Origin: an uncultured Lachnoclostridium sp.
Lineage (GTDB): Bacteria; Bacillota; Clostridia; Lachnospirales; Lachnospiraceae
Reading direction: 5' to 3'
NCBI GenBank assembly: GCA_937903005.1
Contig: CALFNR010000144.1
Coordinates: 21,948 to 85,947, forward strand
Length of the DNA: 64,000 bases
The stretch's first letter is position 1, and each line of letters begins with the position of its first letter. Of the stretch, positions 7,432 to 36,327 are shown piece by piece. The notes under the pieces are model-generated. The model did no database searches. It was not told the origin of the DNA and saw only the letters and a program-made list of their open reading frames with translations. The position numbers and the translations under genes are program-made.

Positions 7432-7464
7432 TAACTTATGTTCAAAAGTAAAGGAGATTTTGAG

Positions 7465-16654: not shown

Positions 16655-16718
16655 AAATTATGGTGGCTGCTAGTCAGCCTCCTCTTTATAAAAATAACTT
16701 TAGAAAATGGAGATATAT

Positions 16719-18842: not shown

Positions 18843-18900
18843 TTTTGAAAGGGGGTAGAGATACCCCTTTTTATTTAACCATAAAATAGGAGCTGATAAG

Positions 18901-19254
18901 ATGTTAAATGATAAAAGATTAATTATTGCCGTTGATTTTGATGGAACTTTATGTGACTTCGGTTTTCCAAGCACGTTAGATGGAAAGCCAGTAGTAGGAA
19001 TGATTGAATTAGTAAAAGAACTAAAAAGACAAGGACACTACATGATTCTTTGGACCTGCAGAGAAGGAGAAAAGTTAGAGGATGCAAAGAGATTTTGCGA
19101 GCTCCATGGATTAGAGTTCGATTCATATAATGAAAATTCTCCAATGTCAATTGAAATGTATGGAGAAAGTCCACGAAAGGTCCATGCAGATATTTATATT
19201 GATGATAAAGTTGTTGATTACTACACTCTTAAAAGATTGGTAATCGGTTATTAG
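18901..19254 (+). CDS. HAD-like small protein (possible nucleotidase)
   Basis: N-terminal IIAVDFDGTL (DxDGT) motif, 117 aa. Confidence 0.45.
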   Translation: MLNDKRLIIAVDFDGTLCDFGFPSTLDGKPVVGMIELVKELKRQGHYMILWTCREGEKLEDAKRFCELHGLEFDSYNENSPMSIEMYGESPRKVHADIYIDDKVVDYYTLKRLVIGY

Positions 19255-19267
19255 AAAGGATGAAATA

Positions 19268-19615
19268 ATGGAAATTAAAGATAATTATACAAGAAGAGCA
19301 ATAGTGGTGAATGTAGTAGATGGTGATACCGTTGATGTGGATATTGACCTTGGCTATTATATGATAGCAAGGCATAGGGTGAGACTTCTAAGAGTCAATT
19401 CTCCTGAAAAGTTCGGAGAAACCCGCCAAGCCGGTTTTGCTGCAAAAGAATTTACAACAAATGAGTTGCTAGGTAAAGAAGTATTCCTGGTAAGCAAGAA
19501 GACCGATAGCTTTAAGAGATGGCTCGGAGAGATCTATTATAACAAAGATGGAGAGCTAAGAAATATTTCAGATGAACTACTTAAAAGTGGAAACGCAATA
19601 GAATACATGGTATAA
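19268..19615 (+). CDS. staphylococcal-nuclease-like (thermonuclease) protein
   Basis: VVDGDTVDV..RVRLLRVNSPE motif pattern. Confidence 0.6.
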   Translation: MEIKDNYTRRAIVVNVVDGDTVDVDIDLGYYMIARHRVRLLRVNSPEKFGETRQAGFAAKEFTTNELLGKEVFLVSKKTDSFKRWLGEIYYNKDGELRNISDELLKSGNAIEYMV

Positions 19616-19639
19616 AAATTAAGAAATGAGGATAAATGA

Positions 19640-20476
19640 ATGTTACTAAATGCAAAACCGATAGTTGAAAGAAAAATGAATGAGTTAAGAATGAGGGTTG
19701 AAAAACTCGTAGAAAAACCGAAATTAGTTATAATACGAGTTGGAAATGATTTTGCTTCGGGCAAATATGTCAATAACAAAGTAAAACGTTGTGATGAAGC
19801 GGGCATATTAAGTGAAATCGTACATTTTCCAGAAGATGTTGAAAGCAGCGTAGTGGAAAGCAAGATTCTAGAACTTAACCAGGATCCAGAGACAACAGCT
19901 CTATTGCTGCAGCTACCTCTTCCAAAGCACTTAGATGAAGATTACTTAACTTCTCTAATTGTTGCTGAAAAGGATGTAGATGGATTTACAACGCTTAATA
20001 TGGGTAAACTGGTACTTGGCCAAGAAGGAAACGTTGCTTGTACTCCATATGGAATAATCGAGCTGCTAAAAGCATATGACATAGCAATCGAAGGAAAAGA
20101 TGTGCTTATAATCAATAGATCTAATATCGTTGGGAAACCACTAGCTCACTTATTCCTGAAAGAAAATGCAACTGTAACAGTAGCTCATTCCAAAACAAGA
20201 AACCTAGAGCAGAAAGTTTGGGACGCCGATATCGTTGTAACAGCAGTTGGAAAGGCTAATATGTTCTCTGAACTACACTTCTCGCCATATACTACAATCG
20301 TAGACGTATCAATCAACTTCGATGAAAATGGAAAGATGTGTGGAGACGTAACAAAGTCCGATTATGATCGTCTGGTTGAAAAGCATTGCAATATAACTCC
20401 GGTACCAGGTGGAGTTGGCCAAATGACTGTATCATCACTAATTGAACAAGCTATAAGAATCAAAGAGAGAGAGTGA
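19640..20476 (+). CDS. folD: bifunctional methylene-THF dehydrogenase/methenyl-THF cyclohydrolase
   Basis: VGNDFASGKYVNNKVKRCDEAGI, LLLQLPLPKHL, DVDGF, IINRSNIVGKP and TPVPGGVGQMT match the FolD layout. Confidence 0.9.
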   Translation: MLLNAKPIVERKMNELRMRVEKLVEKPKLVIIRVGNDFASGKYVNNKVKRCDEAGILSEIVHFPEDVESSVVESKILELNQDPETTALLLQLPLPKHLDEDYLTSLIVAEKDVDGFTTLNMGKLVLGQEGNVACTPYGIIELLKAYDIAIEGKDVLIINRSNIVGKPLAHLFLKENATVTVAHSKTRNLEQKVWDADIVVTAVGKANMFSELHFSPYTTIVDVSINFDENGKMCGDVTKSDYDRLVEKHCNITPVPGGVGQMTVSSLIEQAIRIKERE

Positions 20477-20489
20477 TCTCTCTTTTTTT
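20464..20489 (+). terminator. rho-independent terminator after folD
   Basis: AGAGAGA-gagtga-TCTCTCT plus T7. Confidence 0.7.
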
Positions 20490-20499
20490 ATTTGAAAAG

Positions 20500-20535
20500 T
20501 GTACTACCAATTTTATGATTATATAATATAAATAT
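20500..20535 (+). promoter_or_regulatory. class-A phage promoter cassette
   Basis: TGTACT-N16-TATAATATAAATAT after terminator 20464-20489. Confidence 0.65.
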
Positions 20536-20559
20536 AGAGACAATAAGGAGGTTATCAAT

Positions 20560-20697
20560 TTGGAATGTATGAACTGTAAAAGATGGATCCGTACATCTAA
20601 AGAAATCAAGAAGGGTGATAAGGTAAGCTGCAAATGTGGCTGCGTTCATCTTTGCTTAGATAAAAATGAATATATATCAAGATGGAGGAAATTATAA
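20560..20697 (+). CDS. 45-aa Cys-rich zinc-ribbon-like peptide (not in ORF track)
   Basis: TTG 8 nt after AAGGAGG. MECMNCKRW..SCKCGCVHLC. Its TAA overlaps the nrdG ATG (TAATG). Confidence 0.4.
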   Translation: MECMNCKRWIRTSKEIKKGDKVSCKCGCVHLCLDKNEYISRWRKL

Positions 20698-21197
20698 TGA
20701 GATTTATGGATATAAAGCCCAATGATGTAATTAACGGTAAAGGAGTTATGGTGTCCGTCTGGCTTGCCGGTTGTCACCACCATTGTAAAGATTGTTTTAA
20801 TCCTGAAACTTGGAGCTTCAAAGCGGGCGAAAAATTTACTAACGACCATCTGAAATACGTATTGGAATTACTTGATAAGAATGGAATCAAGAGAGATTTA
20901 TCAATACTGGGTGGTGACCCGTTGGCTCCAGAGAATATCCAGGGAACTATTGGACTTTGCTCTTATATAAAATTAGCTAGGCCAGAAACAACAATCTATG
21001 TTTGGACCGGTTACACCTATGAGCAGCTTTTGGAGCGATATCCTAAGGAATGCTTTGATAAAATCGATATTTTAATCGATGGAAAGTTTGATGTGGAGCA
21101 AAAAGACCTTACTCTATTATTGAGAGGTTCCAGAAATCAAAGGATTATCGATGTAAAGAAGTCGAAAAAAGATTATGTAGTTGAGTTTACTATATAA
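20697..21197 (+). CDS. nrdG: anaerobic ribonucleotide reductase activating protein (radical SAM)
   Basis: CHHHCKDCFN is a CX3CX2C motif, with GGDPL. ATG 20697 preferred over the tracked 20682. Confidence 0.9.
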   Translation: MRFMDIKPNDVINGKGVMVSVWLAGCHHHCKDCFNPETWSFKAGEKFTNDHLKYVLELLDKNGIKRDLSILGGDPLAPENIQGTIGLCSYIKLARPETTIYVWTGYTYEQLLERYPKECFDKIDILIDGKFDVEQKDLTLLLRGSRNQRIIDVKKSKKDYVVEFTI

Positions 21198-21221
21198 ACA
21201 TTGATTATATAATATAAATAT
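21186..21221 (+). promoter_or_regulatory. class-A phage promoter cassette
   Basis: TTTACT-N16-TATAATATAAATAT. The -35 overlaps the nrdG 3' end. Confidence 0.65.
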
Positions 21222-21256
21222 AACAACAAATAAACAATCAAAAGGAGATTATTAAT

Positions 21257-21466
21257 ATGTCAAAATACCTATTAAAAGAAGTTAAAACATTTAGAACAGA
21301 TAGCGAGCTTGAAGCTGCAGCATTGGTTGATATGTACAAAGTAAAATATGATGTTGTGAGTTATTCAATCGTAAGAAAAGACAAAAAAGATGATAGCTAC
21401 TTTGTGGTAAAAATCACTCTTTATATCAATGATGAAAAGAATCCATGCGAAACATTTTCAGCATAA
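21257..21466 (+). CDS. hypothetical protein
   Basis: 69-aa ORF with AAGGAGA RBS behind a class-A promoter. Confidence 0.5.
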   Translation: MSKYLLKEVKTFRTDSELEAAALVDMYKVKYDVVSYSIVRKDKKDDSYFVVKITLYINDEKNPCETFSA

Positions 21467-21502
21467 TTATTATACAATATAAACACTTGGAGGATTATAG
21501 AA

Positions 21503-21829
21503 ATGACTAAATTTGAATTATTAATGAACATTGCAAGAATTTCTGAAAAGGCGGCGCCAGAAGACTTCCTATTTGAGTTGGTGAACTTTGTGCATGAGCT
21601 TTTATCTGATAAAGACAAAGAGATTTCACAATTAGAAGAATACGTTTGTTTTCTTGAAGAACAGGTTTGTGAAGAAGATGAAGAGGGTTTTGAATGTGCT
21701 GATTTAGATAGAGATCTAATGGACGCTATCTTCCATGAAGCAGTTTTAAGAGCTAAGACAAGAGAAGAAGAGAATAAGCCAGAGGTCGATGATTTCAGAA
21801 CTTTCTTAAAGGGAATTTTCGCAGAATAG
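21503..21829 (+). CDS. hypothetical acidic protein
   Basis: 108-aa ORF, GGAGGA RBS. Confidence 0.5.
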   Translation: MTKFELLMNIARISEKAAPEDFLFELVNFVHELLSDKDKEISQLEEYVCFLEEQVCEEDEEGFECADLDRDLMDAIFHEAVLRAKTREEENKPEVDDFRTFLKGIFAE

Positions 21830-21837
21830 GTGATTGA

Positions 21838-22272
21838 ATGGCTAAATACAACAACAAAAAGGTCGTAGTTGATGATATCACATTCGACTCAAAGGACGAG
21901 GCACTATATTACATCTATCTGAAAGAACAAAAGCAATTGGGCAATGTACTGGAATTTTCAGTACAGCCTAAATTCACTTTACTCAAAGCGTATGAGAAGT
22001 ATGGAAAGAAAGTGCGAGCAATGACATACAGCCCTGATTTCTATATTAAATATCCGGATGGAAAAGAAGAGTACATCGATGTTAAGGGAATGAGTACGCA
22101 GGCTAGTGAAATGCGAAGAAAGCTCTTTGATTACTTTTATAAGGATCTTACCTTACGTTGGGTTTCTAGGAACCTCAAACATGGTGATGAACATGGTTGG
22201 ATTGATTACGATGACCTAAAGAAAGTAAGAGCTGAAAACAGAAAGAAACTAAAACAAACCAAAGCAAAGTAA
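21838..22272 (+). CDS. DUF1064-like putative endonuclease
   Basis: YNNKKVVVDDITFDSKDEA..QPKF..YSPDFYI..EYIDVKG is the pattern typical of DUF1064 phage proteins, as I recall it. Confidence 0.55.
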   Translation: MAKYNNKKVVVDDITFDSKDEALYYIYLKEQKQLGNVLEFSVQPKFTLLKAYEKYGKKVRAMTYSPDFYIKYPDGKEEYIDVKGMSTQASEMRRKLFDYFYKDLTLRWVSRNLKHGDEHGWIDYDDLKKVRAENRKKLKQTKAK

Positions 22273-22333
22273 AACAAACCGTAACAAAGTGATTGAAAGT
22301 ACATTAAATTATTGGCACCAGGGAGAAACTACT

Positions 22334-22891
22334 ATGACTAATAAAATATATGCGTTTTGCGGATTATCTGGAACTGGTAAGACAACTGTTGCTAGAATAA
22401 TCAGCGAATTTTATGATCTGCCTTTCATAGTCTCATGTACTACTAGACCTATGAGACCAGGGGAAAAGGACGGAAAAGATTATCGCTTTGTAGATGATCA
22501 TACATGGAATAAATTATCTAAGAATGGAGCTCTTGCTGCAACACAGGAATTTAAAGTTGCTTGCGGTAGTGTTTGGAAGTATGGAATTAAACGAGATGAT
22601 CTAAAAGATTCTTGTGTAATGGTACTGACTCCTTCTGGAATAAATGAACTAAGAGCTGCAGGTTATAACGTCGTTTCTTTCTATATTACAATGATTGAAG
22701 AAACTAGACTAAAAAGAATTGGCTGCAGAAATGACAATCAAAGTAATGCGGAGATTGTCAGGAGAACTAAGGCTGATAAAGCAGTATTCAAAAAGTTTAC
22801 TCCTGATTATATAATAGATAACTCCGGAGAGCTTGCAGATACTATATTATATGTAGCCCAGCAAATGAGTAAAGAGAAGAGTGGCAAATAA
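22334..22891 (+). CDS. gmk: guanylate-kinase-like nucleoside monophosphate kinase
   Basis: P-loop GLSGTGKTT and TTRPMRPGEKDGKDYRFV. ATG 22334 follows GGGAG. Confidence 0.75.
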   Translation: MTNKIYAFCGLSGTGKTTVARIISEFYDLPFIVSCTTRPMRPGEKDGKDYRFVDDHTWNKLSKNGALAATQEFKVACGSVWKYGIKRDDLKDSCVMVLTPSGINELRAAGYNVVSFYITMIEETRLKRIGCRNDNQSNAEIVRRTKADKAVFKKFTPDYIIDNSGELADTILYVAQQMSKEKSGK

Positions 22892-23201: not shown

Positions 23202-23251
23202 TTTTATTGTTTATTAATTTATTGACTTTATTTAATGTTATAAGGAGAATT

Positions 23252-25018
23252 ATGAAAAAATTCATTAATAAATTGGCGTTTGTTGCAAAAATTGTATTTA
23301 TTCAAAATCATATATACACACTAATATACATATTAGGAATACTTTTATCGGGGCTAGCTCCCGTTATACAATTATATATTCTAAATTACATTTTAAGGCT
23401 TATGGAGATCGCATTAACCCAGGGACTTAATGACAAATTGGTTCTAAATGGAGTATTAATTCTAGTATCAGAGGGTCTTATATTTACGTTTATTTATGTA
23501 ATTGATATGTTTAAAGATTTGCTTAATCAACTAATGATTGTGCGTGTGAATTATAATCTTCAGGAACAAATAATTAATAAGCTAAAAGATGTAGAAATTA
23601 GCGCATTTGAAGATCCTGAATTTTATGATAACTATTACAATGCTTCTGAACAATCACAGCAAGCTGTTACGCAAATAGTAAATACTGTAACTTATGGTGC
23701 TTCAATACTCATAAGTACATTGGGATATCTTCAAATAATCGCAAATTTTCACCTTGCAGCAATGTTTATAGTTCTCATATCATTTTTACCTAATATTATT
23801 TTTCATTATAAATTTCAAAGTAAAAAATACCAACTAATAGTGCGTGAAGCAAAAAATCAAAGAAAGCTAAATTACTATTATGATATTCTTGCCAAAAAGG
23901 AATATGTGAAAGAAAGCAAAATATACCCTTTACATAACTTTTTTGAAACTAAAAGAAAAATAACCTTTAAAAAATACTATGAACATTATAGAAAAATAAA
24001 TTCAAAAGAATTTAATGTAAACTTATTGCTAAATATGCTGGGACGAACTGGACGTTCACTCTGTATTATATGGATGTTTATTGATATTGTACATGGAAAT
24101 TACGATATTGCAGGATTTGCTACTTTTTTTAACGCTACATCATCTTTGGACAACTCTTTGAAGTCAATGGTAGCGTTTACTTCTATGGCAAAATCGTCTT
24201 GGATGATGTTGGACTTTTTTATGGACTTTTTGCAATATGAACCACGCTTAATAGGTGGGGAAATAAATGTGCAAAAGAGACAATCACATAAAATAGTGTT
24301 CGAGCATGTTTGGTTTCGATATCAAAATGAGGAGAGCTATGCTCTAAAGGATATCTCTCTTGAATTTAATACTGGCGAACTGACTGTGATATTAGGAATG
24401 AATGGAAGCGGAAAATCTACATTGCTTAAATTGTTACTAAGATTGTATGACCCTCAAAAAGGGAGTATTTTTCTGGATGATAACAATATAAAAAATTATA
24501 AACTAGATGAGTTATATTCCATCTATTCTGTAATATTTCAAGATTTTAATCGATACTCTGCGACACTCTATGAAAACTTAACATTTAGTATAAAACGTGA
24601 TCTTAATTTAAATCATCAATACATACTAGACCTTCTAAATTTTTTAGATACTTTAAGTGAAGGAGTAGACACTGAATTAACACAAGTTTTTGAAGAAGGA
24701 AGTGAATTATCTGGAGGACAATGGCAACGTGTAGCATTATCGAGAATGTTACTCAAAGATGCTGATATTATGATATTAGATGAACCAACCTCTGCCTTAG
24801 ATACGTTCTCAGAAAACTATATTTCAAATCTTCTTCGAAATCAAAAAAACAAGATGATTGTTTGTGTTACCCATAAATTATTCTGTATTGAGGAAGCAGA
24901 TAATATAGTGTTCCTAGAAGATGGGGAACTAATAAGCCAGGGAAAACATTCAATACTAATTAATTCCTGTGAGCAATATAGGCAATTATATAATCTACAA
25001 TTTGGGAATAAAGAATAG
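23252..25018 (+). CDS. ABC exporter, fused permease/ATPase (no C39 peptidase domain)
   Basis: N-terminal multi-TM half. Walker A GMNGSGKST, signature LSGGQWQR, Walker B IMILDEPTSALD. ATG 23252 follows AAGGAG. Confidence 0.9.
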   Translation: MKKFINKLAFVAKIVFIQNHIYTLIYILGILLSGLAPVIQLYILNYILRLMEIALTQGLNDKLVLNGVLILVSEGLIFTFIYVIDMFKDLLNQLMIVRVNYNLQEQIINKLKDVEISAFEDPEFYDNYYNASEQSQQAVTQIVNTVTYGASILISTLGYLQIIANFHLAAMFIVLISFLPNIIFHYKFQSKKYQLIVREAKNQRKLNYYYDILAKKEYVKESKIYPLHNFFETKRKITFKKYYEHYRKINSKEFNVNLLLNMLGRTGRSLCIIWMFIDIVHGNYDIAGFATFFNATSSLDNSLKSMVAFTSMAKSSWMMLDFFMDFLQYEPRLIGGEINVQKRQSHKIVFEHVWFRYQNEESYALKDISLEFNTGELTVILGMNGSGKSTLLKLLLRLYDPQKGSIFLDDNNIKNYKLDELYSIYSVIFQDFNRYSATLYENLTFSIKRDLNLNHQYILDLLNFLDTLSEGVDTELTQVFEEGSELSGGQWQRVALSRMLLKDADIMILDEPTSALDTFSENYISNLLRNQKNKMIVCVTHKLFCIEEADNIVFLEDGELISQGKHSILINSCEQYRQLYNLQFGNKE

Positions 25019-25060
25019 TGAAAACTAATCTATAAAATATATTAAAAGGGGAGTACATAT

Positions 25061-25246
25061 ATGTTAAAAAAATTAAATCATTCAAATGAATTGCAAAAAG
25101 GTAGCGCATTAGCCAAATGTGCATGTTTATGTATCTGTTTTGGTAGTAAAAAAGTAGGATTTGCCGTAACTGGTTCGGAAAATGGTATTCTTACAATGGC
25201 TGCATTAGATTTAGAAGAGGATATTTTAAACTTTATTCTAAAATAA
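25061..25246 (+). CDS. putative RiPP precursor peptide (61 aa, CxCxCxC)
   Basis: GGGGAG RBS. MLKKLNHSNELQKGSALAKCACLCICFGSKK.. Lies between the exporter and the radical-SAM maturase. Confidence 0.6.
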   Translation: MLKKLNHSNELQKGSALAKCACLCICFGSKKVGFAVTGSENGILTMAALDLEEDILNFILK

Positions 25247-25290
25247 ACCGTATAGTAATTTTATATTCTCATTATTCTTTATTCCTTAAT

Positions 25291-25321
25291 CTATAATAAG
25301 CAATAAAAATGCTTATTATAG
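25291..25321 (+). promoter_or_regulatory. perfect 12-bp stem hairpin between precursor and maturase genes
   Basis: CTATAATAAGCA-ataaaa-TGCTTATTATAG with no U-tract after it. Confidence 0.6.
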
Positions 25322-25350
25322 AGAAAATACTATGTAAGTTGGAGGAGACT

Positions 25351-26691
25351 ATGATATACAAGTTATTAACTGTTGACTCAGAAAAATATATATATGATGC
25401 ATATGATAACATTACCGTGCAAATAAGTGATGAATTATTCGATATGATTAATAATGGAATTTGTAATCATAGGTATCATGAACTTATAGAGCAGTTTGGT
25501 ATAAGAGATATATATCAGGATAAACACCTAAGCAGATCTGATTATGTTCATTCGGATGAATATAAATGGCAAGTGCAAAATTCTCAGAAACAATTAGTCC
25601 TTTCTATTACAGAAAATTGCAATATGAGATGTGAATACTGTGGTTATTATGATAAACGTTATGAAAAAAACGATCATAATATATCAGATTCTATGAGTGA
25701 ACATACTTTAAAAGCTGCCATTAAAAAATTCTTAACATGTTCCAGAGAAATGGATGTTGTATACATATCATTCTACGGTGGGGAACCTTTATTGAAGTTC
25801 GACCTAATACAAACAGCGGTTAAATTTGTAAGAGAAATGCATTATGGCCAGAAAATATGTTTTACAATTACAACAAATGGTCTTTTACTAACCCCAGATA
25901 TAGTTCAATTTTTTGTGGAAAACGATTTCACGATAACGATTAGTCTCGATGGACCAAAATATGTTCATGATAAATACCGCCTAGATGCAAATGGTAATGG
26001 TACTTATACAAGAATTATTAATAACATCATGTATATCAAAAAGAACTATATAAATTATTATGAACACAACATTCGTTATAATGTTGTACTGATAGAGCAT
26101 GACAAAAAAAATGAAATTGTTGATTTCTTTTACCACGAAAGTGTTAGCTATTTAGGTTTAAGTCTTACTAACCATTTTCGTGAAAAGTATAAAGACACAA
26201 TAAACTACTACAAAAATAAAGAAGTGCATTTAGGTGACGAAGTAGCTTCAGCTTTTTTTAATGTAGAAAAAGATATTAGACAACTAATCAAATTTTGTAA
26301 AATTGGAAGAGATGATGAACATAAAGTTTATATGCCCGCAGCCTATTGTTTACCATATGAAAGAAAGGTCTATGTTACTGCAAATGGTTCTCTGTATCCT
26401 TGCGAAAAAGTACCTGAAACTGCAAATTATATGTTGGGGAATCTTGAGGATTGGAACAATATCGAAGCTGTATCATCTGTAATTGAAAAAAGCTATAATA
26501 CTTATTGCAAAAAGTGTGCCAATTGTTGGGCTCAACGCTTTTGCGGAATGTGTTTTGCTAATGAATCAATAATTGAGGATAAGTGTGATGAAACACGTGC
26601 TAATATTGAGAAGAGCTATTCATTCTTCTTGAGTAAGGAATTTCAAGAAAGCAATATGTACAATAAATTATTACAAATTGGATTAGACTAG
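25351..26691 (+). CDS. radical SAM / SPASM-domain peptide maturase
   Basis: CNMRCEYCGYY (CX3CX2C), SFYGGEPLL, C-terminal Cys cluster ..SLYPCEKV..CKKCANCWAQRFCGMCF. ATG 25351 follows GGAGGAG. Confidence 0.85.
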   Translation: MIYKLLTVDSEKYIYDAYDNITVQISDELFDMINNGICNHRYHELIEQFGIRDIYQDKHLSRSDYVHSDEYKWQVQNSQKQLVLSITENCNMRCEYCGYYDKRYEKNDHNISDSMSEHTLKAAIKKFLTCSREMDVVYISFYGGEPLLKFDLIQTAVKFVREMHYGQKICFTITTNGLLLTPDIVQFFVENDFTITISLDGPKYVHDKYRLDANGNGTYTRIINNIMYIKKNYINYYEHNIRYNVVLIEHDKKNEIVDFFYHESVSYLGLSLTNHFREKYKDTINYYKNKEVHLGDEVASAFFNVEKDIRQLIKFCKIGRDDEHKVYMPAAYCLPYERKVYVTANGSLYPCEKVPETANYMLGNLEDWNNIEAVSSVIEKSYNTYCKKCANCWAQRFCGMCFANESIIEDKCDETRANIEKSYSFFLSKEFQESNMYNKLLQIGLD

Positions 26692-26723
26692 AAGCAAATA
26701 AATGAAGGGGAGGATAAATACAT

Positions 26724-28403
26724 ATGGATTTAAATAATATTAGTATGTATTCAGGAAAAAACAAAAGAATTGCCGTAATAGATACAGGCGTCGCATTAAA
26801 AAGTCCTAATATTCATCATTACATGGTTGACGCTCAAAATACTTTTAATGAATGCCACACTTCCTTCATCAAAAATATGCATGGGACATATTGTTCATTA
26901 AGAATTTTGAGTGAACTACCAGAGATAGAGCTTTATTCCTATTGTGCATGTAATAGGGATGGAGAGATAGATATTAATTTAGTGAAATTGGCTATAGAAT
27001 CTGCAATTCAAAACTCTGTTGACGTTATAAATATTAGTTTAAAATTTGATAAATTTTCAGAATCATTATATAATACCTGTAATAAGGCGTATGAAAGCAA
27101 TATCATTATTGTTGCTGCATCGGATGGAAACTTATCATATCCGGCTAATCAAAGAAATGTACTAAGTGTTAGTTCACAAAAATTATTAAAAGGTAATGAA
27201 GTTTTTATAGAATTTGAAAAAGGAAATATAATTCTATATGATAAAGACTTTACTTGTAATTTTGAAGGAAGAAGCATCGTTGTCCCTGTTTCTAGCAGTC
27301 TTGCAAGTGCATATTTAAGTTGCAAAATTATATCTGCAATAAATGAATATCCCCTACTATCTGGGAAAATGCTTTTCCGAAAACTATTAGGGGTTGATCT
27401 TTATTGTGATACTTGCCAAGAAATAGCTGATACAATAAATCCAAACACTTTAGTATTTGATTCATCATATGCATTTACTGAGTTACTAAAATTTCATAGC
27501 TGTATGAATAAAAATATTAAAGGTTACTATGACATATCTAAGGATATATTTACTGATTTTTCAGGAAATGAGTTATTAGATACTTCTGATAGTTTTCTAC
27601 TAGAAGTCAACTCTTCTATAAAAGAGAAAAATTCAGTATACGCTCAGAAAAGACTAAATATTGGTAACCATTCGCTTATTGGAAATTTTACCAATCCTGA
27701 AAATTATGACACCGTTACACTATTACAGCATAAACCGCCAGAGATAGCGTATATAGAAAAGATTAGTAAGCCTATAATTTGCATTTGCGGCTTTGGCCAT
27801 AGTAGTTCAAAGTTCTATACACAAGTAATGCTACATAAACAATTTCTTAATAAAAATAATGCACCTATTTCAATTACTTATAATTCTTTAGGGTACATAT
27901 TCGACTTTAAAGTGTTTAAATATCCTGAAAAGATAATACTTCCAGACTTAATCTATTCCATTAATCAGGATTTATACCTATATGATTCACAATATGTCGA
28001 TAACGATATTTTTATCATTGACATTGCTGGAGGTATCTGCCCTATTAATAATAAAAATAATAACAACTTTGGGAAGCTTTTTGATTCCTACACCGACGCT
28101 GCAAATATTGATATTGTGGTGTTATGTATTAACCAAGCAATTGATCCTATTGTAATTGAGCGCGAAATAAAGAGAATTGAAATGAAAGGCATACCATATA
28201 TCTATTTAGTAATTTCGAATGAATGTTACACGCAAGCGTCACTGGTGCATTCAGACGGCGTTAAGAGTGTATATAAAAATTCGATTTCTGAAAAAGAATT
28301 TTATTCAATGTATAAAGAGATATTTTACAAATACCCAACCTACTTTAAAAGTGACTTGGATAGCGGAAACTTGTTCAATGATATATATAAACTTTTTGTG
28401 TAA
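26724..28403 (+). CDS. subtilisin-like (S8) peptidase fused to a ~330-aa uncharacterised C-terminal domain
   Basis: IAVIDTGV (Asp), MHGTYCS (His), AASDGN (Asn), SSSLASAY (Ser) in the first ~220 aa. I recognise no motif in the rest. Confidence 0.7.
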   Translation: MDLNNISMYSGKNKRIAVIDTGVALKSPNIHHYMVDAQNTFNECHTSFIKNMHGTYCSLRILSELPEIELYSYCACNRDGEIDINLVKLAIESAIQNSVDVINISLKFDKFSESLYNTCNKAYESNIIIVAASDGNLSYPANQRNVLSVSSQKLLKGNEVFIEFEKGNIILYDKDFTCNFEGRSIVVPVSSSLASAYLSCKIISAINEYPLLSGKMLFRKLLGVDLYCDTCQEIADTINPNTLVFDSSYAFTELLKFHSCMNKNIKGYYDISKDIFTDFSGNELLDTSDSFLLEVNSSIKEKNSVYAQKRLNIGNHSLIGNFTNPENYDTVTLLQHKPPEIAYIEKISKPIICICGFGHSSSKFYTQVMLHKQFLNKNNAPISITYNSLGYIFDFKVFKYPEKIILPDLIYSINQDLYLYDSQYVDNDIFIIDIAGGICPINNKNNNNFGKLFDSYTDAANIDIVVLCINQAIDPIVIEREIKRIEMKGIPYIYLVISNECYTQASLVHSDGVKSVYKNSISEKEFYSMYKEIFYKYPTYFKSDLDSGNLFNDIYKLFV

Positions 28404-28454
28404 TAACTTACACTTAGTTAACTAAAATACTTTTGTTAAACAGGAAGGACAAAA

Positions 28455-29195
28455 ATGAACGAAAATTATATAAGAGGAATTATTAAAAAGAAGAATTTTG
28501 AACTTGATGATGAATATTACAATAGCATCGCTGCATTAAAAGACTTAAATAAGTTGGATTTTAATAGACCCGTCACATTTTTCGTTGGAGAAAATGGTAC
28601 TGGTAAATCTACTGTTTTAGAAGCAATCGCCGTTGCTCATGGTTTCAATCCAGAAGGTGGGAGTATAAACTTTAATTTTGAATCTAAAAGTACACATTCT
28701 AACCTATATAAGCAACTTACACTAGTTAAAGGAGCTAAGAGACCCAAGGATGGCTTTTTCTTACGTGCAGAGAGCTTTTATAATGTTGCTACCGAAATTG
28801 ATAATTTGAATGACTCTGCAGATGTATTTTTGGACAACTATGGCGGCAAGTCATTGCATAAACAATCTCACGGAGAGAGCTTTCTATCACTAATACAATA
28901 TAGATTTCATGGCAACGGATTATACCTGTTAGATGAACCAGAAGCTGCTTTATCGCCACAACGTCTCTTAACAATGCTCATATATATTAATAAATTAGTA
29001 CAAGAAAATTCACAATTCATAATCGTAACCCATTCTCCAATTTTACTAGGTTATAGAGATGCTGACATTTATTCATTTGACAACGGAGAAATTGAAAAAA
29101 TAAAGTACGAAGAAACCGAAAGTTATTTTATAACTAAAACATTTTTAGATGATCCAGATAGAATGCTGGCCAATCTATTTGACAACGATTATTAA
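28455..29195 (+). CDS. stand-alone ABC/SMC-head-like AAA ATPase
   Basis: Walker A GENGTGKST, SHGES signature-like loop, Walker B LYLLDEPEAALS, THSP. No TM or partner permease. Confidence 0.75.
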   Translation: MNENYIRGIIKKKNFELDDEYYNSIAALKDLNKLDFNRPVTFFVGENGTGKSTVLEAIAVAHGFNPEGGSINFNFESKSTHSNLYKQLTLVKGAKRPKDGFFLRAESFYNVATEIDNLNDSADVFLDNYGGKSLHKQSHGESFLSLIQYRFHGNGLYLLDEPEAALSPQRLLTMLIYINKLVQENSQFIIVTHSPILLGYRDADIYSFDNGEIEKIKYEETESYFITKTFLDDPDRMLANLFDNDY

Positions 29196-29376: not shown

Positions 29377-30408
29377 ATGAGAATAACAAAAAGATTTGAA
29401 ATTGGAAGTCAGCACTTAATGGCGAAAGGAACTCTTAAAGTAAAGAGCTACTTTGAAGAAAACGACATTTTATATATGGTTTACACTTTAAATGAAGACC
29501 CAACTGAATATACTAACAAATATGTAAATGTGATTTCTATCATTTACAAATGGCAAAAGAAAAATGGTATTACATCGGCAACTACTGTTGAAGAGTTCGT
29601 TGAATTAACATTAACAAGAAGTCTTAAATTTGGCCTAGAAATGGAGCTTACGGTTCCATCTAAAGAGCTTCTTAGAACAAAACTAATTGAAGCCGGCGTG
29701 AGAGTATCTAATCCATCATCTACACACGAAGTTGTTGTTGGTTGGAAACTAGTATATGATGGTTCAATCCAAACTTCTAGGGGTTATGAAGGCGTAGAGC
29801 TTGTTGCTCCACCAAGTACAAATTTTGATGAATTAGAAATCGTATGTAAAGTTCTTAATGAGATCGGAGCAAAAGTAAATAATTCTTGCGGGTTACACGT
29901 TCACCATGAAATCGCTGATTTCAAAAGACAACAAATTCTTAGAATGTACAATTTCTATAGCAAATATGAAGAGGTAATCAATAGCTTCATGCCTGCTTCA
30001 AGATTAAATAATAGATATTGTCAACCTGTTTCTAGAATCATCGATAAAGTAAATAACTGCCCTACTAAAGAAAAATTACTAAAAGATATTGCGGGTAAGG
30101 GTGCAAGAGGTTATTATGATAGTTGTAGATACTACACAATGAACTTAAGAAGTTACCTGTATTATGGTACCATTGAGTTCCGCCAACATGCTGGGTCTAC
30201 AAACTTCGAAGAAATCTCAAATTGGATTCTATTCACTCACAAAATCTTAGAAAGAGGATTAGAGATTGGAAACAATGTTCAACCATTAGATAGTAGCATT
30301 ACTACTAAAAAGGCTAAGTACGAAGAGCTTAAAAAGGAACTTAAAATTGAGAGAACTAAATTAGCAAAACACTTTGAAAATAGATTAAAGAAAGCGAGAG
30401 TGGCCTAA
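29377..30408 (+). CDS. putative amidoligase (Amidoligase_2, glutamine-synthetase-like fold) with N-terminal phage-specific domain
   Basis: GLEMELTVP, WKLVYDGSI, GVELVAPP, CGLHVHHE, YYTMNLRS, GTIEFRQHAGS. The N-terminal ~60 aa is paralogous to the ORF at 8765. Confidence 0.65.
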   Translation: MRITKRFEIGSQHLMAKGTLKVKSYFEENDILYMVYTLNEDPTEYTNKYVNVISIIYKWQKKNGITSATTVEEFVELTLTRSLKFGLEMELTVPSKELLRTKLIEAGVRVSNPSSTHEVVVGWKLVYDGSIQTSRGYEGVELVAPPSTNFDELEIVCKVLNEIGAKVNNSCGLHVHHEIADFKRQQILRMYNFYSKYEEVINSFMPASRLNNRYCQPVSRIIDKVNNCPTKEKLLKDIAGKGARGYYDSCRYYTMNLRSYLYYGTIEFRQHAGSTNFEEISNWILFTHKILERGLEIGNNVQPLDSSITTKKAKYEELKKELKIERTKLAKHFENRLKKARVA

Positions 30409-31908: not shown

Positions 31909-31935
31909 AGACTACCACTATACGGTAGTCTTTTT
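31909..31935 (+). terminator. rho-independent terminator
   Basis: AGACTACC-actatac-GGTAGTCT plus TTTTT. Confidence 0.8.
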
Positions 31936-32066: not shown

Positions 32067-32438
32067 ATGGATTCAATAGGGGAACGTATTCGCAAATTAA
32101 GAAAATCAAAAGGAATTACACAAACAGAAATACAAGAAAAGACTGGTATTTCTTCAGGAAATATAAGTGAAATAGAAAATGGTAGGTATCTACCATCTGC
32201 TATCGCACTCATGGAGCTATCTAAAATTTTAGAGTGCTCGACTGATTATATCCTGTTTGGTGATTCTCACCCACCTAAAAGTACTAGCAATATTTCTAAT
32301 AATGAAATATATTTACTTAATGAACAAGAAGCTCGCTTATTAAATTATTATCGTGAAATATCTAAACCAGAACAAGAAGAACTAGTTTGTATTGCAAAGA
32401 TGAAATTTAATAAAGAATTGAGAATATTTGATATATAA
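32067..32438 (+). CDS. XRE-family HTH transcriptional regulator (candidate phage repressor)
   Basis: IGERIRKLRKSKGITQTEIQEKTGISSGNISEIENGRYLPS. ATG 32067 follows GAGGAGG. No S24 peptidase-like C-terminus. Confidence 0.85.
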   Translation: MDSIGERIRKLRKSKGITQTEIQEKTGISSGNISEIENGRYLPSAIALMELSKILECSTDYILFGDSHPPKSTSNISNNEIYLLNEQEARLLNYYREISKPEQEELVCIAKMKFNKELRIFDI

Positions 32439-32500
32439 ACCGAATGATATGTAAATTATCACAAAAATAACTGTATACTTCGTTAAATTGTTGCTATTTT

Positions 32501-32529
32501 TTGACGAAAATTCTTCTCTGTGGTATAAT
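32501..32529 (+). promoter_or_regulatory. consensus sigma-A promoter of the agrC-like/agrD-like operon
   Basis: TTGACG-N17-TATAAT with TGg extended -10. Confidence 0.65.
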
Positions 32530-32558
32530 AATAGAAAAAAATATACAGGGGGGATTTT

Positions 32559-33935
32559 TTGAAATCGTTATTTGTTATTCTAATTCTTCTATGCAGACTT
32601 ACAGAACCCTTTGTATGGGATTGGTTCTGTTCTAAGCTTGCGTGCACATTGGTTATAACAAATACAAAAGATAAAAAGAAAAGCTTATTACTATTCATTC
32701 TTGCTTGTTTTGGAAGTTTCCTGATAAGTGATTTTATTGGAGAATTAAACGTTCTATCATTCTTGTTTAATAACTCCTTAATAGTTATTTTTTACTTTTA
32801 TGCGGTTAGGGTTTATCATCTTAACTTCAAGATTGTTTGTGGCTGTTTATCTATTCACTACATATTTTCTTGCTTTACGGAGTATCTTCTTTCGTTCTTA
32901 CAGATTATTATTTTCAACTCATTAAGAATTACTTCGTTTGAACCGTCACTAACACGATGTATTATGTATATTATTTTTACGGTGCTTTCCTTCTTGGTTT
33001 TCTTTTTTCTATCAAGGTTGGATCTACATGCTCTTTGTGCCTTGGAGCATGACCGTATCTTTTATACTTTAGTTTTCGTTTTTACATTGGACATATTTGC
33101 CTTTTGCTTGTTTTCCTGTATTCCTAACGAAAACATTTTTAACATTGGGACATTTGTATCTCTTATGATAGAGGTAGCCGTTACTTGTCATGCTTTACGA
33201 ATGTTATTTCTGGATGTTAATACTTTAAGAAATTTTGAAACCGAATTACTTTGTACGAAAAATAGGCTTGAAATGTTTCAGTTTGACGCGGATAAATTAG
33301 AACAGACTTCTAAATTCATGCATGATGTGAAACACCACATTAATACAATTTCTTATTACCTGGAGCATGACGACATGAAGTCTGCAAAAGAGTATATTTC
33401 GGGTCTTACACCTGCTATGGACGATTTGCGTATCGAAGACTTTGGTTACAACCGCTTTAGCAACTTGATTCATAAGAAAGTACTTGAGGCTAAAAGTCAT
33501 GGGATTGATTTTACCTTTTCGAGCGAACTTATTGATTTAAAGATTCCACTTTATGAACTTAGTTCTGTATTTAACAATTTACTAGATAATGCAATCGAAG
33601 GGTGCCTGGCCAATACCGCCTCGACTTATCACAATATTTCCTTTTTCATTCGTAAAATGCCTACGGAAATATTGATTATTGTTATCAATGATTGCCTGCC
33701 TACTTTAGATGGTGTTCCTACTGGAACCACTAAAGACGATAAAGAAAATCACGGTTTTGGCATTGGTATTATTACTGATTTTGCATATAAGTATTCCGGT
33801 GATTCGTTTATTCTTGCGGAAGATAGTCTTTTTATGGTGCAAATAAGTTTACCTCTCAATTATGGGGTTTGGGAGGAAAACGATTCAATTGACACCGAAA
33901 TTACCGATTTAGAATCTTCACTTGATTTAACTTGA
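32559..33935 (+). CDS. agrC: AgrC-like membrane sensor histidine kinase (GHKL)
   Basis: ~200-aa polytopic N-terminus, H-box SKFMHDVKHHINTI, N-box FNNLLDNAIEG, G-box ENHGFGIGI. TTG start after a G-rich RBS. Confidence 0.75.
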   Translation: MKSLFVILILLCRLTEPFVWDWFCSKLACTLVITNTKDKKKSLLLFILACFGSFLISDFIGELNVLSFLFNNSLIVIFYFYAVRVYHLNFKIVCGCLSIHYIFSCFTEYLLSFLQIIIFNSLRITSFEPSLTRCIMYIIFTVLSFLVFFFLSRLDLHALCALEHDRIFYTLVFVFTLDIFAFCLFSCIPNENIFNIGTFVSLMIEVAVTCHALRMLFLDVNTLRNFETELLCTKNRLEMFQFDADKLEQTSKFMHDVKHHINTISYYLEHDDMKSAKEYISGLTPAMDDLRIEDFGYNRFSNLIHKKVLEAKSHGIDFTFSSELIDLKIPLYELSSVFNNLLDNAIEGCLANTASTYHNISFFIRKMPTEILIIVINDCLPTLDGVPTGTTKDDKENHGFGIGIITDFAYKYSGDSFILAEDSLFMVQISLPLNYGVWEENDSIDTEITDLESSLDLT

Positions 33936-33968
33936 TTTAAGAAGCTTCCTGGGGAGGAGGTGATTTTT

Positions 33969-34115
33969 ATGAAGAAACTAACGACAAAGCTTTTAAGAAA
34001 CTTCGCAGAATCTTCACTTCGTAATGAAGTTTCTTATTGCCATTATTATTGTTATCAGCCAAAAGTTCCACAAATGGATAAAATTGTCGAGCGTTTTGGG
34101 AAAAGAAAAATCTAA
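33969..34115 (+). CDS. agrD: 48-aa AgrD-like autoinducing-peptide precursor (not in ORF track)
   Basis: ATG 7 nt after GGGGAGGAGGTG. MKKLTTKLLRNFAESSLRNEVSYCHYYCYQPKVPQMDKIVERFGKRKI has a leader, a Cys-containing core, then a QPxxP tail. Ends at a bidirectional terminator. Confidence 0.55.
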   Translation: MKKLTTKLLRNFAESSLRNEVSYCHYYCYQPKVPQMDKIVERFGKRKI

Positions 34116-34150
34116 TTTTTTAGCACCAAGAAAGTTCTTGGTGCTTTTTA
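34115..34150. terminator. bidirectional terminator between the agrD-like gene and the recombinase
   Basis: AGCACCAAGAA/TTCTTGGTGCT stem flanked by T6 on the + strand and A-run/T5 on the other side. Confidence 0.75.
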
Positions 34151-34156
34151 ATTTAA

Positions 34157-35140
34157 CTACATTCCAAACGCTTCTAGCAATTTATCTGTGGATTTATCTT
34201 CAAGATAACTCTGTGTTGTGCTGATATCTGAATGATTAGCTAATAACTGCAGTTCTTGTAGTGTAAATCTCTTTCCTAACTTCTCGCACATGTAATGTGT
34301 TCCATTTTCATAGTTATTTAAAGAGCTGTGTCTGAAGCTGTGAGGATTAAACTCTTTTTCTACTCCCATTTCTTTTAATAAGATTTTTCTCCAACTTACG
34401 ATCTGGTTATATAAGGTTTCATAAGCTGCTGGTCCACCATGTCGAGTTTCCCATAAATGCTGTTCTTCATCATTTCTGTGCTCCATATATAAGCCATATG
34501 CTTCCTTAGTAAGTTGGTGATATATAAGACGGAACTTCTTACCTCTTTTTCCTGTTACCTCATTCTTTGTGAAATTAGCTTCGATTGAAATATCTTCTCT
34601 TGTTACCTGGAAAGCTTCGTTTCTACGACATGAGCTGTCATAAAGGAAGGCACAAAGTAAGGCCTCGGAATATCTTTCTTGTTTAACTAATGAATTGTAA
34701 ATGCACATTACTTCTTCGTTAGTCAAGAATATGATATCACGGGCCTTTTCTTTTCTAAGTCCTTTTAATCTATTTGGATTTACCTTGCAATCCTCGAAAT
34801 CCTCTTCGTAGTCATCATCTTCGGCCACAAAGTTGAAGAGGTTTCTGGTAGTTGATAGCATACGATTTATTCTCGCTGCACTCATACCGTTGTCTTGCAT
34901 CCATAACACGAAATTTCTTAGAGCCTTTCTGTTCAAGCGGTATAACTGCTTATTATCCAGTTCTTCCATTATATATATAAGAATTATTCTTGCGTCATTG
35001 TAATATTGCTTGATTGACTTTTCCGATTTTCCTTCGGAACGTATCTGTAGGATATAGTCGTCTAGTAGCTGTTTATTGTATTTATTTACTTTTTCCCATC
35101 TCTCTGGTGTATATATTCGATTATAGGTTTGTTTTGCCAT
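34157..35140 (-). CDS. tyrosine recombinase / phage integrase family
   Basis: N-terminal SAM-like domain. Catalytic pattern ..SSCRRNE.., HSFRHSS, LANHSDISTTQSYL. Confidence 0.9.
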   Translation of the reverse strand: MAKQTYNRIYTPERWEKVNKYNKQLLDDYILQIRSEGKSEKSIKQYYNDARIILIYIMEELDNKQLYRLNRKALRNFVLWMQDNGMSAARINRMLSTTRNLFNFVAEDDDYEEDFEDCKVNPNRLKGLRKEKARDIIFLTNEEVMCIYNSLVKQERYSEALLCAFLYDSSCRRNEAFQVTREDISIEANFTKNEVTGKRGKKFRLIYHQLTKEAYGLYMEHRNDEEQHLWETRHGGPAAYETLYNQIVSWRKILLKEMGVEKEFNPHSFRHSSLNNYENGTHYMCEKLGKRFTLQELQLLANHSDISTTQSYLEDKSTDKLLEAFGM

Positions 35141-35160: not shown

Positions 35161-36327
35161 CTATCTATAAAATTCTTGTGTCGCGTAAATCTTGTTACCG
35201 ATTTTGTAAACTCCAATACCAATACTAGAAAAGTTATTGGATAAGATATTTGCTCGATGTCCAGAAGAGTTCATCCAGTTAGTCATGAACTGTTGAGCTA
35301 ATCCAGATCTATTAGTCATCCAAGCAATATTTTCACCCCACGCTCGATAAGAAACTCCATCAGCCTTCATTTGCACTGTGATAAGATTTCCGTTTAGGTC
35401 CTCATGAGAGAAATAATTGTTATCCCCCATATCTTTAGATTTGATACGAGCGTATTTCTGCATTGTATTGTTATAAGATAGTGCTGGTAATCCATTCGCA
35501 GCTCTTTCTTTATTTACGATCTGGAATATCTCTTGCTCTACCGTAGCAATGAAATTAGATTCATTAACTTCTGGCTTAACTTCTGGTTTTGTTTCCGGCG
35601 TTACCTCTGGTTTAATGGAAGGCTTATCATTAGGTTTAATTACTGGAAATGACGGCCTTACTATTGGTGTACTAGGAATTTCAGATGGCTTTTCAACTGG
35701 CTTGTTAGGCGTTTCTGTTGAAGGCGGAGTCACTGGTTTATTTTCTGGAACTGGTGGTTTTTCTGTTGGTTCCTGAATGCCAGGTTCCTCACTTGGTTTT
35801 GTCTCTGGTTTTATAACCTCTTCTTCATCATCTGGCTTTGTTTCCGGCTTATCTTCCGGTTTGATTTCTGGCTTAATCTCTGGGTTTTCTTCCTTGTCTG
35901 GAACTACAACCGTGTCTTTATCCGGTTCCTTATTTGGTTTTTCAGTATTAACACTTGACTCTGGTTTCTCAGGTTTATTGAATGTGCCATTAATCACTGC
36001 GTCCACACTAACGATATTTTGTTGTATAGAACTAGAGATATGATTGAAATCTGGTATTTCACCTTTGACTTCCCCAGTCTCCTTATCAACGATTTCTAAA
36101 CCGTCTTTTCCTGGAATAATTGCGATATTCTCTGATACAAATAGATCTAAGCTAGATTCTCCTTCATTCTCATTGGAATCGGTTGAATTGTCTTGTTCGG
36201 TTTCTAATACGATTGCTTCATCTGTTGGTAAATTTGGTACTGTATCATTAGTAAAAGTATTTAATTGTGCAGCGCTCATGGCTACCATGATTGTCCCCAT
36301 TACAAATCCTAATACTTTCTTTTTCAT
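35161..36327 (-). CDS. secreted CAP/SCP (YkwD-like) domain protein with Pro/Glu/Lys-rich linker
   Basis: Signal peptide, KPEIKPEIKPEDKPETKP.. low-complexity linker, C-terminal CAP pattern (NKERAANGLPAL..YFSHE..GENIA..GHRANIL). Confidence 0.8.
   Translation of the reverse strand: MKKKVLGFVMGTIMVAMSAAQLNTFTNDTVPNLPTDEAIVLETEQDNSTDSNENEGESSLDLFVSENIAIIPGKDGLEIVDKETGEVKGEIPDFNHISSSIQQNIVSVDAVINGTFNKPEKPESSVNTEKPNKEPDKDTVVVPDKEENPEIKPEIKPEDKPETKPDDEEEVIKPETKPSEEPGIQEPTEKPPVPENKPVTPPSTETPNKPVEKPSEIPSTPIVRPSFPVIKPNDKPSIKPEVTPETKPEVKPEVNESNFIATVEQEIFQIVNKERAANGLPALSYNNTMQKYARIKSKDMGDNNYFSHEDLNGNLITVQMKADGVSYRAWGENIAWMTNRSGLAQQFMTNWMNSSGHRANILSNNFSSIGIGVYKIGNKIYATQEFYR
35577..35970 (-). repeat. coding low-complexity P/E/K/T repeat region
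   Basis: Repeated (K/E)P(E/D)xKP units. This creates the spurious + strand G/S-rich ORFs 35549..36403. Confidence 0.7.

Follow-up and report, generated by a model that had tools for sequence, protein, structure and literature searches.

The 64,000-nucleotide stretch of DNA analysed here, hereafter the window, comes from an uncultured Lachnoclostridium sp. (assembly GCA_937903005.1, contig CALFNR010000144.1, positions 21,948 to 85,947) and belongs to an ~86-kb circular siphophage, possibly a phage-plasmid, of uncultured Lachnospiraceae. Near the middle of the window, on the + strand, a gene for a 123-amino-acid (aa) regulator of the XRE family (32067..32438) is followed by a sigma-70/SigA-type promoter (32501..32529), a TTG-initiated gene for a 458-aa AgrC-type (HPK10) sensor histidine kinase (32559..33935), an open reading frame (ORF) for an AgrD-like pro-peptide of 48 aa (33969..34115) and an intrinsic terminator (34122..34145), beyond which an XerC/D-like tyrosine recombinase of 327 aa is encoded convergently on the - strand (34157..35140). 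The original prediction, made from the sequence of the window, described these genes as an orphan agr-type sensing module without AgrB or AgrA, and proposed that they feed cell density into the lysis-lysogeny decision of the phage. Our analysis upholds the first proposal and carries it to the whole phage; the second we find unsupported.

The kinase has the polytopic GHKL architecture and AgrC-type H-box that had been claimed for it. A Cys-rich sensor domain (residues ~1-225), whose seven hydrophobic and presumably transmembrane (TM) segments lie within residues 1-220, is followed by a DHp domain bearing His255 and a GHKL ATPase domain, and an alignment with phage AgrCs shows an intact and invariant H-box (KFMH255DVKHH), N-box (NLLDNAIE) and G-box (ENHGFGIG). 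A Pfam scan returns HATPase_c_5 (PF14501) above its cutoff at 7.3e-16, the S. aureus AgrC kinase-module structure (PDB 6e52) is matched at 4.8e-7, and the NCBIfam AgrC model NF046015 aligns with residues 31-383 at 1.5e-11. The last of these is an equivalog for S. aureus AgrC on which the kinase scores 44 bits against a cutoff of 500, and we therefore regard the protein as a member of the AgrC/HPK10 family and not as an AgrC orthologue. Close relatives are few: a search of 5.8 billion proteins yielded three, with identities of 82%, 81% (a fragment) and 66%, and the remaining matches are at most 32% identical, most of them covering the cytoplasmic part only. An apparently truncated kinase in contig L111 proved to be a gene-caller artefact, the DNA being identical. 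The two nearest outgroup kinases (P0005 and P0008), 27% identical to ours, both adjoin LytTR regulators in arrangements without AgrB: in contig L022 (193-2394) a LytTR regulator gene is followed by the kinase and a 49-aa peptide ending in TATCMTFFTIICC, and in contig L116 (3456-6151) the kinase gene stands between a divergent XRE gene and a convergent LytTR regulator gene. Outside classical agr loci, then, it is common in these bacteria for an HPK10 kinase to have a small peptide or an XRE gene as its partner.

The 48-aa ORF (MKKLTTKLLRNFAESSLRNEVSYCHYYCYQPKVPQMDKIVERFGKRKI) begins 33 bases 3' of the kinase gene, with a ribosome-binding site, GGAGGAGG, 7-9 nt before its ATG, and can be parsed as MKKLTTKLLRNFAESSLRNEVSY-CHYYC-YQPKVPQMDKIVERFGKRKI. 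Its sole match among 18,950 NCBIfam models is the AgrD family TIGR04223 (E=0.014, 15.6 bits), and the same family is the sole NCBIfam match for all three peptide variants tested. Since the E-value is already corrected for the number of models, the per-model p for an AgrD hypothesis stated beforehand is ~7e-7. The staphylococcal AgrD family of Pfam (PF05931) does not appear among the peptide's matches at E<=1. The layout is that of an AgrD: residues 1-18 have a hydrophobic moment of 0.51, as expected of an amphipathic AgrD leader, and are followed by a putative Cys-x4 thiolactone ring (C24-H-Y-Y-C28), a Tyr and the tail QPKVP; there is no hydrophobic signal sequence. Ring, next residue and tail thus read CHYYC, Y and QPKVP, as compared with SVWYI, N and QPKMP in the AgrD of the C. 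difficile phage phiCDHM1 and STAGT, Y and QPKEP in that of Ruminococcus phage NatCom_29429, and both of those peptides, with their [S/C]x4-x-QPKxP layout, adjoin a Pfam-verified AgrB. On the strength of the family match, the ring and tail layout and the hydrophobic moment, we take the 48-aa ORF, as had been proposed, to encode a probable AgrD-type pro-peptide, a sub-threshold member of its family.

The pair appears to be transcribed as a unit of its own. The promoter ahead of the kinase gene, recognized in the original prediction as close to consensus, consists of TTGACG, a 17-nt spacer and TATAAT, with an extended -10 TG at -14; it matches the consensus at 11 of 12 positions, is the sole site of such strength in the 3.9 kb scanned, and is kept in all five homologous loci (5/5). 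Conservation among these loci starts no earlier than the -35 element, TTTTTGACG, so that the kinase-peptide promoter has no conserved upstream activator site or repeats. At the other end, the terminator (a 10-bp stem) is followed by TTTTT on the + strand only; on the - strand side the next sequence is A-rich, and a terminator scan reports the + strand alone. The hairpin is therefore the terminator of the cassette and not demonstrably the bidirectional one, common to the cassette and the recombinase, that had been suggested.

The question of whether AgrB and AgrA are truly missing turns on the extent of the element. Exact-protein look-ups matched the window to contigs of 86.0-86.1 kb that come from several samples and are circular permutations of one another, among them NCBI DNAV01000139.1 (from a Lachnospiraceae metagenome-assembled genome, or MAG), ENA k119_137396, NODE_74 and Logan contigs, and the window joins with contigs L025 and L016 into a circle of ~86.0 kb whose overlaps contain zero mismatches and which includes no host DNA. 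Six contigs, drawn from four samples or more, carry the phage copy of the cassette at 100% identity. No AgrB, LytTR (PF04397) or receiver (PF00072) domain was found anywhere in this closed circle, either in precomputed Pfam annotation or in our own Pfam scans, which took in the stretch outside that annotation. The kinase is the only ORF of the element with four or more TM segments, and when two phage AgrBs and two LytTR regulators were compared by phmmer with the six-frame ORFs, the best E was 0.3, which is noise; as a positive control, the AgrC of phiCDHM1 finds the kinase in the same six-frame set at 2.7e-7. An agrB/agrA pair just outside the window, which by the original prediction would have refuted it, is absent: the products of the remaining 22 kb are Rep3, a Bro/ANT antirepressor, a TubZ-like tubulin, a divergent pair of a 124-aa helix-turn-helix (HTH) protein and a 68-aa protein, an MrpR-like recombinase, YorF, SHMT, thymidylate kinase, DHFR, ThyA, dCMP deaminase, an AAA_24 protein, a hydrolase, YorH, DnaB and RecJ. 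Because the element closes into a circle free of host DNA, the absence of agrB and agrA holds beyond the window. No LytTR or receiver gene adjoins the homologues of the cassette in contigs L004-L008, and neither the kinase nor the peptide gene has an AgrB gene beside it in any context seen.

Within the phage the cassette sits where two long gene blocks meet. The + strand block (1-34115) carries replication and nucleotide-metabolism genes and a peptide-modification cluster considered below, and ends with the XRE, kinase and peptide genes; the - strand block (34157-61270) starts with terminase, continues with head, tail and lysis genes and closes with a gene for a secreted CAP-domain protein and the recombinase. 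This convergence point of the early (+) and late (-) blocks is a typical position for a moron.

Copies of the cassette elsewhere show that it is not confined to this phage. The copy with the 82% identical kinase is chromosomal, lying between a gene for a 1,098-aa LRR/Flg_new cell-wall protein and pyrG/ftsH, with no phage genes around it, in an uncultured Lachnospiraceae whose PyrG is at most 86% identical to that of any representative (83% to Lachnospiraceae MAG and Anaerocolumna representatives). The copy with the 66% identical kinase lies on a short contig in a third context, with other neighbours again. Promoter, ribosome-binding site, kinase and 48-aa ORF are co-conserved in the five loci. 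The fate of the XRE gene is different: in the chromosomal copies (L004, L005 and L007) it is cut down to ~120 nt from the middle of the gene, fused directly to the -35 region. As the XRE gene decayed in the chromosome while the pair persisted, the regulator would belong to the phage setting, and it appears to be dispensable for the kinase-peptide core. Thus, of the three-gene module that had been proposed, all three genes are present in the phage, but they do not form one obligate unit. What does travel together, as a mobile cassette, is the promoter with the kinase and peptide genes. A second HPK10 kinase with a LytTR-like regulator in L005 was considered as a partner of the chromosomal cassette and was not counted, since it is absent from L004. 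As an observation in its own right, this L005 locus (300-2431), ~8 kb from the chromosomal cassette, consists of an HPK10 kinase gene (440-452 aa) followed by one for a 171-aa receiver protein whose LytTR domain is apparently cut short.

The chromosomal segment of ~1.8 kb, holding the XRE remnant, kinase and peptide genes, is bracketed by a 23-nt direct repeat, GGGGCTGT(T/C)GCTTTAACGATTGA, which lies inside terminator hairpins (L004 9792-9814 and 11565-11587; also in L005, L006, L007, L028 and L029). The two repeats resemble the attachment-site pair attL/attR, and we infer that the segment may be the remnant of a mostly deleted prophage in which the XRE, kinase and peptide genes stood beside the attachment site. 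We looked for the repeat in the phage as a possible attP and found it absent from the whole 86 kb; a search for an empty site by way of PyrG reached representatives no closer than 86% identity, and the repeat is in none of 80 related pyrG loci.

Both genes of the pair bear the marks of selection. The ratio of nonsynonymous to synonymous substitution (dN/dS) is 0.15-0.19 for the kinase, at dS of 0.67-1.6, and 0.07-0.23 for the peptide, at dS of 0.53-1.4. Values so far below 1 identify these as real genes under purifying selection, and the alignments thus show two genes kept intact and conserved in at least three genomic contexts. At the same time, the pattern of variation is not uniform. In the four peptide alleles EVSYCHYY and YQP.VPQ.DKIVERFGK are invariant, and the fifth ring residue, the one whose carbonyl would close the ring, is C in the phage and L, L and F elsewhere. 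Where this residue differs, as between the phage kinase locus (C) and the 82% copy P0002 (L), the sensor domains are 75.6% identical and the cytoplasmic parts 88.8%; between P0002 and P0003, both with an L-ring, the corresponding values are 76% and 60%. A sensor domain that diverges along with the ring residue is the signature of agr specificity groups, which three sequences, as here, can suggest.

Overall, we believe, with a confidence that is only a little better than even, that the kinase and peptide genes are a reduced two-gene agr locus carried as a moron, one that depends on a host AgrB and a host LytTR regulator and speaks a private signal/receptor dialect. The operon would be transcribed constitutively, or in the phage be gated by the upstream XRE repressor, and its pro-peptide would be anchored through the amphipathic N-terminus. 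A host AgrB-type peptidase would then cut the pro-peptide after the ring and cyclise it to a five-residue thiolactone, C-H-Y-Y-(C/L/F), which, once exported, the 7-TM kinase of the cassette itself would sense. This kinase in turn may phosphorylate or dephosphorylate a host LytTR response regulator, an output we propose because the nearest outgroup kinases are paired with LytTR regulators. In this scheme the cassette would report the density of its carriers and alter host gene expression, as in lysogenic conversion, and would have no direct connection to the phage switch. It is plausible that the cassette depends on AgrB and a regulator of the host, and selection on the pair both in the phage and as a domesticated chromosomal remnant points to cross-use of host AgrB/AgrA by a mobile pair, or else to signalling independent of AgrB.

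Several observations weigh against this model. The peptide's 15.6 bits fall below the trusted cutoff of 19 for TIGR04223, pairwise comparison of the peptide with individual AgrDs is not significant, and a peptide profile search of the 5.8 billion proteins returned just four close variants and no AgrD with a similar tail, so that no wider family can be traced and no cognate AgrB family named. For the kinase, neither the 185,579 GTDB species representatives nor IMG/VR yielded a relative. A compatible host AgrB or LytTR regulator is an assumption, the co-variation of sensor and ligand is based on three sequences, and a consensus promoter that needs no activator means that the classical agr autoinduction loop is missing.

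Among the alternatives, the one closest to the original prediction is an arbitrium-like function, in which the cassette supplies cell-density input to the lysis-lysogeny or maintenance decision of the phage, with the XRE regulator, the recombinase or both as the phage-side output. In its favour, the cassette stands between lysis genes and the recombinase/XRE pair, as agr does in phiCDHM1, a repressor-type XRE gene stands immediately 5' of the kinase gene, and the phage has the SPbeta-like genes YorF, YorH and YonJ. Of the two candidate outputs, the XRE protein (HTH_3 at 1.4e-14; its ATG lies behind a GGAGG ribosome-binding site) is similar over its full length to the DicA (2.7e-18) and RstR (3.3e-15) models, both below cutoff, and over the HTH it shares just 29% identity with the other HTH protein of 123 aa that the phage encodes. 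As the original prediction noted, it has no match to the self-cleaving peptidase S24 in family scans; nor do those scans find a receiver or peptide-binding domain in it, and the 86-kb element offers no phosphorylatable regulator, which counts against the model. A search for XRE operators, and for motifs common to the regions upstream of the XRE and kinase genes, turned up just weak 7-nt repeats, none convincing, so no operator-like repeat connects the two promoters. The recombinase (Phage_integrase 2e-10, SAM_1 3e-8, XerC 8e-24, the last below cutoff) adjoins the cassette in every phage contig and could be an integrase or a multimer resolvase; we regard it as a neighbour of the cassette. The kinase-peptide pair, moreover, is self-contained, with its own consensus promoter and terminator, and is under purifying selection in a chromosome that lacks phage genes and in which the XRE gene is destroyed. 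A more typical immunity region lies elsewhere, ~35 kb from the cassette beside Rep3 and the tubulin, where the divergent 124-aa HTH/68-aa pair and Bro/ANT likely serve that role. We therefore find the proposal of an arbitrium-like density input, suggested by position, unsupported, and consider it unlikely.

Similarly doubtful, in our estimate, is a second alternative, in which AgrB plays no part: the peptide would act inside the cell, for example on the kinase or on other regulators, and the kinase would eavesdrop on host peptides or serve as a phosphatase or sink for AgrA-type regulators. The pair occurs in three contexts with AgrB never within reach, and other HPK10 kinases precede unrelated small peptide genes without AgrB, as in L022. 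There is also a precedent in C. difficile 630, where in cells without AgrB1 unprocessed AgrD1 builds up in the cytoplasm and alters toxin gene expression (PMC8534292). Against this stand the features of AgrB processing that the peptide retains, namely the amphipathic N-terminus, the Cys-x4 ring and the x-QPKxP tail, and the variation at a ring position in parallel with divergence of the extracytoplasmic/TM sensor, which fits an extracellular ligand-receptor pair.

A third alternative connects the cassette with a neighbouring cluster for a ribosomally synthesized and post-translationally modified peptide (RiPP). The phage encodes a radical-SAM (rSAM) RiPP cluster in the window at 23207-29195, with a 603-aa ABC exporter, an S8 protease that carries a fused TIGR04066 maturation domain, an ABC/AAA ATPase, a 61-aa Cys-rich ORF (25061-25246; ...AKCACLCICFG...) and an rSAM/SPASM maturase related to CcpM (TIGR04068, 3e-75) and the lachnocin maturase (7e-73), both matches being below cutoff. 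The cassette might control this CcpM/lachnocin-type cluster, or the S8 protease and ABC exporter of the cluster might, in place of AgrB, mature or export the peptide. The cluster lies 3-9 kb upstream of the cassette on the same strand, and the chromosomal copy in L006 is ~4 kb from a Clo7Bot/rSAM/ABC cluster. In the chromosome, however, the housekeeping genes pyrG and ftsH stand between the two, the two rSAM enzymes are just 27% identical, L004 and L008 have no such cluster within the DNA at hand, and the family match of the peptide is to AgrD, not to any RiPP precursor; we judge this connection improbable. It is hardly credible, finally, that an agrBDCA or agrC-B-D locus, once complete, has decayed to leave the pair without function, for although two of the four canonical genes (2/4) are missing and the XRE gene is clearly decayed in chromosomal copies, the reading frames are intact with all catalytic motifs retained, the promoter and ribosome-binding site are conserved, and dN/dS stays far below 1 for both genes at dS of up to 1.6.

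The favoured model of a moron that depends on the host can be pushed further, and we mention its boldest form as a speculation to which we attach little probability. Here the cassette would be a parasitic plug-in that hijacks host AgrB for maturation and a host LytTR regulator for output, opening to carriers of the phage or its remnant a private channel counting kin lysogens only. The XRE gate would, in the phage, tie this channel to the prophage state and so create a functional analogue of arbitrium based on agr; or else the pair would signal without AgrB. If signalling is indeed AgrB-free, there would be a new route of maturation for AgrD-type peptides. If instead the pair cross-uses host components, mobile elements could diversify the quorum-sensing languages of gut Lachnospiraceae without carrying a whole pathway.

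Other features of the phage deserve a brief description. Structural genes (portal, capsid, terminase and tail) co-occur with Rep3, the TubZ-like tubulin, two tyrosine recombinases and a serine resolvase. The Rep3 initiator, Bro-N/ANT antirepressor, TubZ-like tubulin and divergent HTH pair occupy the region from window 63248-64000 onward (L025 2928-9795), and this region, together with the circular 86-kb contigs without host flanks, suggests a phage-plasmid lifestyle; the nearest relatives of TerL are from siphophages of 79-92 kb, and free phage DNA would look the same as the circularly permuted contigs. The three site-specific recombinases of the element are the serine resolvase (190-199 aa; window 7438-8037), the MrpR-like tyrosine recombinase outside the window (317 aa; L025 11648-12601) and the XerC/D-like enzyme beside the cassette. 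Searched by megablast, 50,697 phage records gave no match to the module.

Upstream of the cassette, an Amidoligase_2 gene (PF12224, 2.5e-36; 29377-30408) lies between the RiPP cluster and the cassette and is followed by unannotated ORFs of 61 and 227 aa and a DUF3846 gene; 3' of the latter, a terminator-like hairpin on the + strand (31909..31931; an 8-bp stem with 4 GC pairs, then a T-tract) separates the XRE/cassette region from the long + strand gene block. On the other side, at 35161-36327 on the - strand, a gene between the recombinase and the holin/endolysin genes encodes a 388-aa protein with a hydrophobic N-terminus, long Pro/Glu/Lys-rich repeats and a C-terminal CAP/SCP domain (3e-19); called as just 238 aa in the NCBI contig L002, it is a second moron-like gene. 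The nucleotide-metabolism set (window 16286-22891 and L025 13807-18179), comprising NrdD and its activase, FolD, a dUTPase-like protein, guanylate kinase, SHMT, thymidylate kinase, DHFR, ThyA and dCMP deaminase, is unusually large for a siphophage, and the phage also encodes PolIII-alpha, gyrase/topoIV subunits, a ligase, RecJ and DnaB. An HNH endonuclease gene (125 aa; 59663-60040, - strand) between the YonJ-like and small terminase genes is present in the window, L011 and L013 and absent from L010 and L012, an insertion/deletion polymorphism among near-identical phage genomes.

Comparison with known systems helps to place the locus. It shares with arbitrium (AimR-AimP-AimX of SPbeta-like phages) a phage-encoded peptide signal and receptor and some SPbeta-like backbone genes, but it is not arbitrium: a TPR receptor of the AimR type is missing (the match of the AimR model to the XRE protein is confined to the HTH, at residues 9-56, with E=0.0025 and 16.9 bits against a cutoff of 70), the peptide has neither a secretion signal nor the logic of hexapeptide maturation, and reception falls to a membrane kinase, for which the phage encodes no output. 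The resemblance to agrBDCA of S. aureus is closer, extending to the architecture of the kinase (the match to 6e52), the layout of the pro-peptide and the hypervariability at the ring and sensor domain. Nonetheless, the locus is not a complete agr circuit: AgrB and AgrA are missing, and in place of the AgrA-activated promoter of canonical agr there is a near-consensus promoter without conserved upstream repeats and with no sign of AgrA-dependent autoinduction.

The nearest parallels are found in other phages. To our knowledge, phage-carried agr genes have been known since phiCDHM1, and their role has never been worked out. The agr3 locus of phiCDHM1 (HG531805), which the original prediction rightly named as a precedent, is likewise phage-borne and incomplete, lies between lysis (endolysin/holin) and integrase/regulator genes, places the kinase gene ahead of the peptide gene, and encodes a peptide with the ring-x-QPKxP layout. 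No response regulator was found there either, and a relay to host AgrA was proposed (Hargreaves et al. 2014, PMC3901668). Its order is agrC-agrB-agrD (agrB PF04647, 1.3e-35), and the locus described here has the same order minus agrB. The two are far from identical: the kinases share only 29% identity over 58% of their length, the phiCDHM1 ring begins with Ser and ours with Cys, and phiCDHM1 is a 54-kb myovirus of C. difficile, unlike the ~86-kb siphophage of uncultured Lachnospiraceae considered here. Ruminococcus phage NatCom_29429 (PV036441; Ca. Heliusvirales, ~74 kb, from gut Bacillota) also has an HPK10 kinase, 28% identical to ours in the cytoplasmic part only, and an AgrD with a YQPKEP tail, but its agr is complete, with AgrB (8.5e-34) and a LytTR response regulator (9e-18) beside kinase and AgrD. 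Given phiCDHM1 and this complete system, phage agr is not new in itself. Partial sets are known in bacteria as well, and C. difficile agr1, for example, is agrB1D1 only (PMC3901668; PMC8534292). Such known partial loci retain AgrB and AgrD, the signal-making half, whereas the locus described here retains AgrC and AgrD, a receptor with an unprocessed signal. In this context, the cassette is the smallest phage version of agr seen so far, reduced to a receptor and a pro-peptide, and the reverse of the partial loci known from bacteria.

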